A stretch of 39,643 nt of DNA from UHGV virus genome UHGV-0215940. One strand, 5' to 3'. Each line of letters starts with the position of its first letter. Position 1 is the stretch's first letter. The notes below the pieces were generated by a model. That model was not told the DNA's origin and did no database searches. It worked only from the letters and a program-made list of their open reading frames with translations. Positions 1-27,392 of the stretch are shown in pieces. The translations under genes and the position numbers were made by a program. This DNA comes from a virus.

Positions 1-1737
1 AATCTTACGTGCGGACTCGCGCAGTGACGCTGGCATACGGGCAATCTCTGGAGCCTTAGATGCGTTCAGTGCAGACTCAAATGCTTTATCGTCCTCAAAG
101 CGTTGCTCTTTGGACCGCTTAACAGTCAGTCGGTCGGCATCAAGAATAACCTGAGGGTCAATGCCCTGCTTGTCCATCATGTCCATCGTCAGGAATAGCT
201 CAGCTTGGTCTGGGTATAGTGCAGCAATCAACTGAGGGTCGGCATTACGGATTCTACGTAGAGCATCCAAAGCTGGGGTATTGTCCGGTAACTTACCGTT
301 AATCACAGCGGCAGACCACTCTTGACCAGCATCTGTTACCATAGTCCCGATTGCTGTACGGAATGCACCGTCCTTAGAGTCCGCTTGAAGGTACTTCAAC
401 TTCATAGCGTCCTTAGCGCCATCTGGAATATCCATACGGTCAATCTCAGCGAGCTTCTTATTGGCGTAGTTAACCATATCGCTATGCTTGAACTCACCAG
501 TGTTCTCGTTGACTGGCATATCCTTAAAATCCGTTGAGACCCACTCACCGTTGATTCGCTTCTGGAATTGCTTGTCGATTACGTCAAGTTTGTTCATTGA
601 CTTCATGGAATCGTCCAGAGCCTTGGCCTGAGCTTTCGTCCATGCGTTCATCTGATTCTGAACTTGTTCCTGTGCGGAGATTAGCCACTCACGTTGTGGT
701 GTCATCTGCTCATCAGGTTGGACCTTATCTAGTTCAGCCTTGATACCTTGAAGCATCTCCCACGCAGTACGAGGGTCCTCTTGGTTCAGCGCAGAGTTAA
801 TCTTCAAGCGATACTGCTCGTTCAGCTTAGCGTCAGTCTCAAACTGAGAGCGTTGTGCTGTCACCATTAGAGCATTCCACTGTTCCTCACCCATCAACTC
901 TCGGTAAGTCGTAGTGGCCCCGTTAAGTGTTACCTTCTTGTCACCGACTCGCATCAGGAAGTCAGCACCACCAGCACGGCTAGAAGCGTCACTGAACGCT
1001 TGGCTTATAAGCTGTGTGGCTTGAGCGTCAGACGGGATTGCCCCAGTAACCAGACCATTGTCGATGTACTTCTCAAAGAAGTCAGCAGAGTCTGGACGAC
1101 GAAGCATATCAGGGTCTTGAAGGACACCGTTAAGTTCCACTCGGCTGTTCATGATGGCACCCTTCTGAGCTTGTTGGCTCAAGAAGTTATCATGCGCACC
1201 GTACAGCGAGATGTTACGCTCAGTGATGTCCCCGTTGAAACCACGCTGATAGTCAACGTCCTCTGGGTCAATCCCAAACTGCTCAGCGTATGCCTTAGCG
1301 CCCTCTTGAAGACGACTATGGCGATACTGCTCCATCTCCTCACGAGTACGGAAGGCACCCTCTTTCACCTTCTGCATAACATCATCATCAACAAGGTATG
1401 CAGCGTTACGACCAGTCTTGACGCGGAGTGCTTCCATAGCGTATGGGTCATCCTGATACAGAAGGGTCCCGTTGTTGAGGGCCTCTCGACGCTGCTCAGG
1501 AGTTAGCTTACGGATAATCTCGTTAGAGCGTTCGTCAGCTAGGTCTCGTGCTCGTTGTTCCTTAGCGGTATACATATCGGCACCAGCCTGAGCGAACCGA
1601 CCAATAATGTCCAATAGGCTGGACTTTGGTTGTTCAGCTTGAGTGGTTGCTGCACGATAGCCCATACCACCAGCACCACCACGTAACCGAGAGAGTCCCG
1701 GTTGTGCCGCTTGAAGGGCAGATTCAATTTTACTCAT
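1..1737 (-). CDS. 15: Internal virion protein C (gp15), N-terminal 579 codons. The ORF continues at the window end (39137..39643).
   Basis: ATG at 1735-1737; translation begins MSKIESALQAAQPGLSRLRGG; open frame to position 1; reverse complement of window end + window start gives the contiguous ...ASLRESARKI/YDSVKYRSG... of T7 gp15; total 747 aa. Confidence 0.9.
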   Translation of the reverse strand, partial: MSKIESALQAAQPGLSRLRGGAGGMGYRAATTQAEQPKSSLLDIIGRFAQAGADMYTAKEQRARDLADERSNEIIRKLTPEQRREALNNGTLLYQDDPYAMEALRVKTGRNAAYLVDDDVMQKVKEGAFRTREEMEQYRHSRLQEGAKAYAEQFGIDPEDVDYQRGFNGDITERNISLYGAHDNFLSQQAQKGAIMNSRVELNGVLQDPDMLRRPDSADFFEKYIDNGLVTGAIPSDAQATQLISQAFSDASSRAGGADFLMRVGDKKVTLNGATTTYRELMGEEQWNALMVTAQRSQFETDAKLNEQYRLKINSALNQEDPRTAWEMLQGIKAELDKVQPDEQMTPQREWLISAQEQVQNQMNAWTKAQAKALDDSMKSMNKLDVIDKQFQKRINGEWVSTDFKDMPVNENTGEFKHSDMVNYANKKLAEIDRMDIPDGAKDAMKLKYLQADSKDGAFRTAIGTMVTDAGQEWSAAVINGKLPDNTPALDALRRIRNADPQLIAALYPDQAELFLTMDMMDKQGIDPQVILDADRLTVKRSKEQRFEDDKAFESALNASKAPEIARMPASLRESARKI

Positions 1738-1743
1738 AGCTCA

Positions 1744-2334
1744 TTACCTCCCCGTCTTGGTTCCTTTAGCGGCAACAATAGGTGCCTTAGTTGTGGGTTT
1801 AGAGTCAAACGCCCCAGACGCGTAAGCGCTCGCAGCGGAAGACCCCATGACAGCCAGCGGGTCAAGAACCATCTGTAGCTTACTCTTCTGTTTCTGTTCG
1901 CCCTTATAGATTTCGTCAATCTGGCTTGCAGCACTTTGAGTGCCACCAAGTTGCTGTGCGAAGATAGCTTGGTAGTCACGGCGGTAGTTCTCAGTTACCA
2001 TATTGGCTTCCCGAATGAACTGCCCTTCTGTGACTCGCTTAATACGGTCCATTGAGGAACCTTCAAGCATACTCTCCCCGATAGCTGCTCGGATAGACCC
2101 CATAGCTTGAACCTTCTGCATGTTCTGTGAGGTCAACTCAGAGGATGCTTCCTCAAGTTTACTTCGAGCTTGCAACGATAGGTCAGCATTCTGGATGTTC
2201 GTCTGCTTCATTAGTTCGATAGCTTGACGACGACCAGCAGCGGTCTGAGCGGCAATCATTTTGGCCTGAGTGTTCTGACCACTGATGGCCTGAGCACCAG
2301 CCAATGCGATAGGAATTGCGGCGAGCCAACACAT
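1744..2334 (-). CDS. 14: Internal virion protein B (gp14)
   Basis: 196-aa ORF in the T7 gene 14 position, between 13 and 15. Confidence 0.9.
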   Translation of the reverse strand: MCWLAAIPIALAGAQAISGQNTQAKMIAAQTAAGRRQAIELMKQTNIQNADLSLQARSKLEEASSELTSQNMQKVQAMGSIRAAIGESMLEGSSMDRIKRVTEGQFIREANMVTENYRRDYQAIFAQQLGGTQSAASQIDEIYKGEQKQKSKLQMVLDPLAVMGSSAASAYASGAFDSKPTTKAPIVAAKGTKTGR

Positions 2335-2338
2335 ATGG

Positions 2339-2755
2339 TTATCCTCCTTTCGTTATTGTGAATAATTGAAATTGACCATCGCGTGTGTACTCCTCATGAA
2401 ATACCGCACCGATAGTCTTGAGGAAACGAATGTGAGACGTATTGCCTACCCACACGTAATTCCAAAGAGTATCATACTTCTCAAGCATCTTATCGCGATA
2501 CTCCATGATTAACTTACGGAATTCTCGCTTAGCTTTTCCACTAAGTCGCCACACTTGGTCGCTCGTAACGAACCAGCACTGGTCCCCGCAATTACCACCA
2601 ATGGCTAGAGGGAACCCATAGAGGCTCAACGTGACACACTCGGAAGCATCTGGGAAACTCGGCTCAATACCAGCAGCCTTAGCTTCAAGAATGTCATGGT
2701 GAGCCGGAGTGAATACCTCAAAGTCTGTACTTTTAGTAGGTCTTATAATCATCAT
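2339..2755 (-). CDS. 13: gp13 internal virion/assembly protein
   Basis: 138-aa ORF downstream of phi13, same length as T7 gp13. Confidence 0.9.
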   Translation of the reverse strand: MMIIRPTKSTDFEVFTPAHHDILEAKAAGIEPSFPDASECVTLSLYGFPLAIGGNCGDQCWFVTSDQVWRLSGKAKREFRKLIMEYRDKMLEKYDTLWNYVWVGNTSHIRFLKTIGAVFHEEYTRDGQFQLFTITKGG

Positions 2756-26312: not shown

Positions 26313-26528
26313 TCAGCCCATTAGCATTGCGTCAAGTTTCTTGTCGATGTTAAGCGGCAGACCATTAACGATAGCCATTCGGTCAGCATCACACCAGTGC
26401 GCTGCGATTCGTTCCTCAAGAGCCTTAAAGTCCCCAGCGGACATGTTGACCCAGAGCATAGCGTTATTGGTCCTTCCCAGTACATCTACAGCTACCTCAT
26501 GGTTACGTCGTTCTTGACGTTTAGCCAT
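26313..26528 (-). CDS. 0.7: gp0.7 C-terminal (host transcription shut-off) segment, 71 aa; a separate ORF here because of an upstream in-frame TGA
   Basis: ATG at 26526-26528 immediately follows the TGA at 26529-26531 in the same frame (reverse complement reads TGG TGA ATG GCT AAA); ends ...KKLDAMLMG. Confidence 0.7.
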
Positions 26529-27392
26529 TCACCACGCAGCAAGCATTCTCTCGGCCTTCGCTTGGTGTGGTTTACGTGCCTTGCGGTTGCGACGTTTGAA
26601 TCTGCGTGCCTCCAATCGACCCACATGACGTGATTTACGTTCCCTAGCGCGGTCAATTTCTTTCTGACGTGCGACTTCCTCGACTTCCTTGATGAGTTCC
26701 TCGGGGTCGATACTGAACGAGCCACCATCTTTCTTCTGAGAGAACGATACAGGGTCGGTAATGAAGGGCGTATCATCATCACTGAACATGATGTTACCGC
26801 TGTGCATATCGAACGAAGCGATGCCCTCAAAGAACTTGCGGATTAACTTACAAGTCTCTACGAACTCGCCATCCCATCCAGTTAACACATCGTGCGCATC
26901 TGATTTGAAGTCAATGATGTCGCTTGCAATCTCAGCGTATTTATAATGCTCATCATTGTTGAAACGCTCGCAATCATTCAGTGCATCGAGTACCACCGTA
27001 TAGCATCCAGCGTGGCGCTGAACATCGTAGACGTTAGGGATACCGGCACGGCCCTGATACATGCGGCAGAATGCGGTATACGCAGCGCCTGAGTCCTCTT
27101 TCTTAAAGCCCACCTTAATCACTCTGTTGGGCAGCAGCGGGTGACTATAAGCAGCCGAGAAGTGACCATTACCAAGCATCTTGAAACCTGCGTCAGCCGT
27201 GAGGCACTTCAAGGTAGTCCACCAATCTTGATGCTCAAGTGCCCGATTTGGTTCGGTAATTTCGCCATCACACGTTTCGCTGTTGACCATCTCGACCAGT
27301 AAGTCGATAAGCATACCTTGGCGCTTGTCAAGTTCACAGATTGGAAGTGCTTTGATTGTGTCGATAGCGTTCATGATGTCGGTAATGTTCAT
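26529..27392 (-). CDS. 0.7: gp0.7 Ser/Thr protein kinase domain, 287 aa, ending at an in-frame TGA
   Basis: [32 protein letters not shown]...; with the downstream segment the total is 1080 nt, the size of T7 gene 0.7 (359 aa). Confidence 0.9.

Follow-up and report, generated by a model that had tools for sequence, protein, structure and literature searches.

Michalewicz and Nicholson reportedly described, in 1992, a laboratory truncation of gene 0.7 of phage T7 whose product of ~30 kDa is kinase-active and shut-off-defective; the mutant is presumably JS78. The complete protein, gp0.7, is made of a kinase domain (residues 1-242) and a shut-off/DNA-binding (SO) domain (residues 243-359), the latter featuring a long, extended helix of basic character (PMC13645617). 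In an older description, gp0.7 was divided into portions of about 30 kDa and about 10 kDa (PMC4858673). The SO domain binds DNA, is toxic and is not needed for kinase activity, and phosphorylation by a deltaSO phage is about 31% of the wild type level (PMC13645617).

Substitutions and deletions in gene 0.7 are common on serial transfer, because in rich media the protein is harmful to the phage (PMC2680503). The parallel appearance of nonsense and deletion mutations in gene 0.7 of evolved T7 lines is attributed to Cunningham et al. (1997) in the account given in PMC13645617. These two sources, the second of them through that account, support the statement, made in a first-pass annotation of the DNA analyzed here, that gp0.7 truncations arise on passage. 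Furthermore, host shut-off driven by gp0.7 triggers the ShosTA defence, and escapers carry mutations in 0.7 (PMC11961720). Alleles that affect one part of gp0.7 are relevant in this regard: the kinase is now viewed as acting broadly against host defences, whereas shut-off is regarded as something that sets such defences off.

Two additional processes need to be considered when a stop codon is immediately followed by a start codon. Bacterial termination-reinitiation requires overlap or a near-zero spacer between stop and start (PMC10666635), and the contribution of a Shine-Dalgarno (SD) sequence to coupling is variable (PMC6728339). On the other hand, a premature TGA is the leakiest stop codon in E. 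coli and is usually read as Trp, at levels that range from undetectable to a few percent at 37 °C and are higher under stress (PMC11126739).

Here we examine gene 0.7 in UHGV virus genome UHGV-0215940, a stretch of 39,643 nucleotides hereafter called the window. The window carries a new allele in the already known class of gene 0.7 truncations. Like the T7 nonsense and deletion alleles, it affects a dispensable early gene, results from a single-step nonsense change, loses the C-terminal part of the protein while the kinase is kept, and belongs to a recurrent type of lesion. Unlike the laboratory alleles of T7, it is wild and metagenome-assembled, and the gene is about 91% identical to that of T7; its closest record is Cedecea phage Yanou, at 93% identity. 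Furthermore, the stop is found at codon 288, within the SO domain, and not at ~242/243 as in the laboratory truncation; hence the basic helix stays on the kinase, and the stop happens to adjoin Met289.

A natural allele of Citrobacter phage phiCFP-1 (AKA62123.1, 281 aa) has similar consequences: the protein retains the kinase and the basic helix but lacks the distal tail, and the kinase ends ...AAWRMA, three residues beyond the stop of the window. The cause is, however, different, as phiCFP-1 has no nonsense codon but has lost 104 nt out of frame (from gene nt 871 to about 974), and its distal segment cannot be re-expressed because it is partly deleted. The phiCFP-1 "protein kinase" of GenBank is thus an unflagged deletion allele, and its annotated start lies 6 codons 3' of the usual one.

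A gene 0.7 frame in two parts

The minus strand of the window contains the series ...GCT GCG TGG TGA ATG GCT AAA CGT..., with TGG TGA ATG at 26534..26526 (Table 1). The first-pass annotation had described an in-frame TGA with ATG as the next codon, a frame of 1080 nt like that of T7 0.7, and products of 287 and 71 aa. All these features were recovered: the length of the frame is that of T7 gene 0.7 (V01146 2021..3100), and both ORFs are present in the ORF list, contiguous and in a common frame. The entire frame can be aligned without gaps with T7 0.7 and with the genes of four relatives, identity being 90-93%.

The serine-threonine kinase profile PHROG 2828 matches residues 1-283 of the 287-aa piece (profile 1-285 of 366; E=4e-148) and, with profile positions 297-366 of 366, the 71-aa ORF (E=1.4e-14). 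The two pieces share one profile between them and are therefore one gene in two parts. The 287-aa product has PF27024 (Phage_T7_kinase) on record and is 91-94% identical to full-length homologues. Our local Pfam copy gave no match for either the 287-aa or the 71-aa piece, probably because PF27024 postdates that copy.

Gene order in the early region (ocr, 0.4, 0.5, 0.6, 0.6B-like, 0.7 and an 883-aa RNA polymerase, gene 1) places the frame between 0.6 and gene 1, as in the gp0.7 family, and the matches to the kinase part and to the C-terminal shut-off part agree with that assignment. The family trait that the window lacks is a single unbroken ORF of ~359 codons, since a TGA occupies codon 288. 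Among the best 120 homologue clusters, about 100 are exactly 359 aa long; fusion of the two parts is thus usual, and the 359-aa gp0.7 is the selected norm.

Table 1. Features of the gene 0.7 frame of the window and gene 0.7 lesions in other genomes
Feature	Genome or record	Position	Strand	Remarks
Complete gene 0.7 frame, one interruption	Window	26313..27392	-	1080 nt, 359 codons + stop
ORF of 287-aa truncated gp0.7, TGA included	Window	26529..27392	-	32.8 kDa; kinase + first 45 SO residues
Kinase (PK) domain, residues 1-242	Window	26667..27392	-	T7 homology via gap-free alignment; limits from PMC13645617
Residues 243-287, part of basic SO/DNA-binding helix	Window	26532..26666	-	Stays on truncated product; 18 K/R, net charge +13
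Premature TGA, codon 288	Window	26529..26531	-	Altered base 26531, C>T on coding strand; ancestral codon CGA (Arg)
ATG, ancestral Met289 codon	Window	26526..26528	-	Possible incidental re-initiation codon; Met in most close relatives
GGTGA, weak SD-like element, product of the same C>T	Window	26529..26533	-	Abuts ATG, zero spacer; from duplex energies
71-codon distal SO segment, now an ORF of its own, natural TGA stop included	Window	26313..26528	-	8.0 kDa, net charge 0
48-aa ORF from internal ATG, codon 312	Window	26313..26459	-	Annotated by gene callers 3' of the stop (P0135)
Nonsense mutation TGC>TGA, codon 109	L148 (IMGVR_UViG_3300045988_000519)	601-1680		Inside kinase
104-nt out-of-frame deletion, from codon 291	L007, Citrobacter phage phiCFP-1 (KP313531)	701-1546		
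In-frame loss of distal tail	L166			
Frameshift	P0119			
21-aa in-frame deletion	P0099			In basic helix
620-nt out-of-frame deletion in gene 0.7	L222 (ENA ERZ17808547 NODE_192)			Coverage 875
Deletion in gene 0.7	L223			
In-frame 0.6B-0.7 fusion	L224 (ENA ERZ28667472 scaffold_237)	2005-2385		126 aa (P0138)

Origin of the TGA and of the adjacent ATG

Inspection of the gap-free alignment indicated that codon 288 is CGA in Yanou, 04922B, UFV01 and T7, CGT in N30, and TGA in the window. Arg is encoded at this position in 16 of 18 related DNA sequences (Asn in two divergent ones), Arg288 is conserved at ≥90% among 36 homologues, and the motif AAWRMA is found in 13/13 full-length proteins of the 90% cluster. 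In this comparison with other 0.7 alleles, of the kind proposed at first pass, every relative carries a sense codon at 288. Because the relatives have Arg (CGA or CGT) at this codon, the TGA derives from the conserved Arg288 codon CGA by a single C>T transition; the stop is thus one step away from a conserved sense codon, and the rest of the gene is intact. No TGA at codon 288 of any gene 0.7 homologue was found in a complete pattern scan of IMG/VR, carried out with the degenerate DNA pattern GCNGCNTGGTGADKGGCTRA to detect other TGA alleles. The 13 IMG/VR matches to the pattern, as well as the 120 metagenome matches listed, were chance matches without gene 0.7 homology.

The next codon, 289, specifies Met in Yanou, N30, 04922B and 13/13 full-length proteins of the cluster, Val in UFV01 and Trp in T7. 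As Met is found at this position in most close relatives, the ATG is older than the stop, and is an ordinary internal Met codon. Their adjacency needs no special explanation, since its probability by chance is 4-8%: 121 single-base changes can create a stop in the gene, and ATG comes next in 5 of them (4%; 8 if GTG and TTG are also considered), while among the 25 transitions that do so ATG comes next in 2 (8%). Three readings had been offered for the junction (a stop-restart arrangement, UGA read-through and a mutation), and it is the mutation that agrees with the Arg codon found in relatives at the place of the stop and with a pre-existing internal Met.

On these grounds, we consider it highly probable that the window carries an ordinary truncation allele: one C>T change in a dispensable, often damaged gene, next to an ancestral ATG, with a 287-aa polypeptide as the main product. 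The change turned Arg288 CGA into TGA in a wild T7-like lineage, and the main product would be a gp0.7 that has the full kinase (1-242) and the start of the basic helix (243-287) and lacks the final 71 residues. The phage can do without gp0.7, which is toxic and a burden in rich media; alleles with partial loss of 0.7 therefore arise and persist easily, and the window allele is one of many. Full-length protein with Trp at position 288 (if UGA is read as Trp) and a 71-aa peptide (if translation re-initiates at the adjacent AUG) are plausible as by-products only, in trace amounts, because both the spacer rule for reinitiation and the leakiness of TGA are published. For annotation purposes, the locus should be labelled as a disrupted gene 0.7 rather than as two genes or as a recoding site.

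Position of the stop within gp0.7

An AlphaFold2 model of the closest intact homologue was of low overall quality (mean pLDDT 60.6, pTM 0.32), and only its long helix was used. A continuous helix is predicted at residues 230-305, with pLDDT about 75-89 over 241-290. Residue 288 thus falls inside this predicted helix, in the SO domain, and not at the kinase/shut-off boundary (242/243). Hence, the earlier view that the stop divides the kinase domain from the shut-off domain does not hold: the stop cuts the SO domain itself.

The basic stretch formed by residues 243-287 remains on the kinase piece, and the detached 71 residues are net neutral (Table 1). It follows that the kinase and most of the basic DNA-binding stretch should be present in the 32.8-kDa product, and that the conserved neutral tail should be missing from it. 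Kinase activity of the truncated gp0.7 would be expected to persist, because the deltaSO phage still phosphorylates at about 31%. Shut-off and DNA targeting may be weakened, rather than neatly uncoupled from the kinase. A mutation that uncouples the kinase and shut-off activities had been among the possibilities raised at first pass. The mutation (CGA>TGA) stands; clean uncoupling is not expected, as the basic stretch is left on the kinase piece. The allele may have a modest value as a natural reagent that parts the basic helix from the conserved neutral tail of the SO domain, a dissection that has no experimental precedent yet.

Two other departures from near-invariant kinase residues were observed, A12T and L48P (codon 48, 27249-27251, minus strand). 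The latter introduces proline where a helix is predicted (21-41 / low-confidence 42-54 region).

Sequence conservation was examined on both sides of the stop. All 129 family-invariant residues outside codon 288 are kept, 118 of them in residues 1-287 and 11 downstream. Of the 13 substitutions unique to the window, 12 fall in the 287 codons before the stop and 1 in the 71 codons after it, too few for the comparison to have any power (Fisher p = 1). The downstream segment has 0 synonymous and 1 non-synonymous unique changes, and no more stops. A stop that is a fairly recent lesion fits these observations. The lack of decay in the 71-codon tail would, however, be just as compatible with selection still acting on a peptide made on its own.

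Gene 0.7 lesions in other phages, and possible adaptive value

Gene 0.7 is not essential, and lesions in it have arisen many times in separate lineages. Including the window allele, at least 9 independent lesions were found in wild or isolated relatives, at least 8 of them other than the window allele (Table 1), and the literature on evolved lines tells the same story. Loss of parts of gp0.7 is thus common in nature, not just on laboratory passage.

A possible, if rather doubtful, interpretation is that the truncation is adaptive, and not neutral or mildly harmful: loss of the distal SO tail would reduce toxicity, speed growth or evade a shut-off-sensing defence of the ShosTA kind, while the anti-defence kinase is kept. 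The C-terminal region has been damaged repeatedly with the kinase spared (in the window, phiCFP-1, L166 and P0119), and the sampled lineage is uniformly TGA. Mutation of 0.7 in ShosTA escapers (PMC11961720) and selection for 0.7 loss in rich media (PMC2680503) point in the same direction. However, the lesions in L148, L222, L223 and L224 destroy the kinase and keep the tail, so that damage shows no consistent direction, and the uniformity of the lineage must be read with the caution that the seven contigs on which the allele is found may be one population. Ordinary truncation, with or without a benefit to the phage, remains our preferred explanation.

Additional observations were made on individual lesions. 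(i) L222, L223 and L224 carry three different deletions that take much or all of the kinase. In L224, the N-terminus of gene 0.6B is fused to the last ~87 residues of gp0.7; the entire kinase is gone and the distal SO tail is kept, and the allele is a mirror image of that in the window. (ii) L222 has an extra gene for a 151-aa Endonuclease_7 protein (PF02945; 1548-2003), possibly a homing endonuclease, between 0.6 and the 0.6B-like gene. (iii) The annotated start of gene 0.7 in L148 is GTG, not ATG. (iv) Two 71-aa ORFs of the same protein cluster, P0136 and P0137, were considered as instances of the same split and rejected, as they are by-products of upstream deletions. Their size is 71 aa because Met289 is the first in-frame ATG left after the deletion.

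Restart at the abutting ATG

Evolution of a split gene would imply termination at the UGA and re-initiation on the adjacent AUG, with the kinase fragment and the 71-aa peptide made in a set ratio. The arrangement has some of the expected attributes. Stop and start are contiguous, with the zero-nucleotide spacer that satisfies the distance rule for reinitiation (PMC10666635), and the downstream ORF is intact. Stop/start adjacency that permits reinitiation is also found in the coupled pairs of T7 (2.5/2.8, TAA-GTG, and seven pairs with a 1-nt stop/start overlap).

The SD signals are, however, of a different kind. Pairing of the 20 nt 5' of ATG289 with the core (9-nt) anti-SD yields -2.8 kcal/mol; each of the 57 annotated T7 starts pairs more strongly (median -10.0), and the value is at the level of random internal ATGs (median -3.0). 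When the 13-nt 16S tail was considered, the GGUGA made by the mutation gave -6.9 kcal/mol, compared with -3.2 for the ancestral GGCGA; yet this pairing is weaker than that of 86% of true starts, and the element touches the AUG with zero spacer. In contrast, an SD at the proper distance is present in 18/18 naturally coupled T7 starts; the T7 coupled pairs are conserved and have correctly spaced SDs of -6 to -13 kcal/mol, while the window has either no SD or a misplaced one at a junction that appears to be a fresh mutation inside one domain.

The variable role of the SD in coupling (PMC6728339) can be invoked in favour of a split gene, but other observations weigh against it: the two-ORF layout is not kept among relatives and is confined to one near-identical lineage, with a sense codon in every relative; the ATG predates the stop; the cut falls within a predicted continuous helix and not between folding units; and the exact 71-aa product is absent from the protein collection searched. 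We thus regard an evolved split gene as very unlikely, and the natural stop-restart arrangement suggested at first pass, with an SD both weak and misplaced, no conservation and no RNA element, is not upheld.

A related speculation, to which we give similarly little credence, is that the C>T change might have made a working two-cistron gp0.7 in one step: restart on the abutting AUG would be aided by GGUGA, and a free 71-aa tail would act in trans, in shut-off or targeting. If true, such a two-cistron gp0.7 would provide a less toxic, differently dosed shut-off kept by selection.

Reproducibility of the allele in the sampled lineage

The window phage is T7-like (Teseptimavirus-like), not T7 itself. 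Its genome-wide identity to the nearest GenBank phages is about 94-95%. The best GenBank match, Serratia phage vB_SmaP-UFV01, covers 94% of the first 25 kb at ~94.6% identity, and because identity to that match is only ~94.6% the phage is probably a Teseptimavirus species of its own. The whole window is reversed and circularly permuted with respect to T7, with the gene 0.7 start ~12.25 kb into the reverse complement instead of 2.0 kb.

A single-base difference in metagenomic data raises the concern of a sequencing or assembly error, or of a minority variant taken by the assembler. The exact 287-aa product is, however, present on 7 contigs of differing lengths from Logan and ENA assemblies, obtained with two assembly pipelines. 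One of them, ERZ1304484 NODE_448 (an ENA metagenome contig of 39,772 bp, coverage 35, with 2 samples listed), shows no difference from the window in the 3,864 nt compared. An identical copy of the neighbouring RNA polymerase likewise occurs on 7 contigs, and the single place shown carries the truncated kinase; no contig with identical RNA polymerase but intact 0.7 was returned. In addition, exact look-up of an intact version of the allele (R, G, L, S, W or C at 288) in a collection of 15 billion proteins retrieved none.

Because the 7 contigs, the ~35x coverage and the contigs with identical RNA polymerase agree, the premature stop is a reproducible feature of the lineage sampled, rather than an isolated error in base calling, with the proviso that the seven contigs may be one population. 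An artefact is hence highly improbable.

Read-through of the TGA

Programmed read-through or selenocysteine recoding would be expected to involve a conserved stop and a dedicated RNA signal, and neither was found. The junction region gave no match to Rfam families, SECIS-type elements included, at E<=1. Folding of the local RNA revealed nothing remarkable (z = -1.07) and no unusual structure 3' of the stop, where the sequence does not differ from that of the relatives with CGA. Hence, UGA read-through as an evolved device, the remaining suggestion of the first-pass annotation, can be set aside: that programmed recoding yields mainly or substantially full-length 359-aa gp0.7 is the least probable of the explanations considered, as the leakiness of TGA, usually to Trp and from undetectable to a few percent at 37 °C (PMC11126739), is a basal property and not a programme, and the stop is unconserved in relatives. 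Altogether, the TGA-ATG junction bears no sign of a designed restart or of recoding.

Another in-frame ATG is found further downstream, at codon 312 (26457-26459, minus strand). It is preceded by GGGAAGGA, whose pairing with the anti-SD (-6.4 kcal/mol) is better than that of ATG289, and might in principle serve, in intact genes as well, as the start codon of a short C-terminal peptide.
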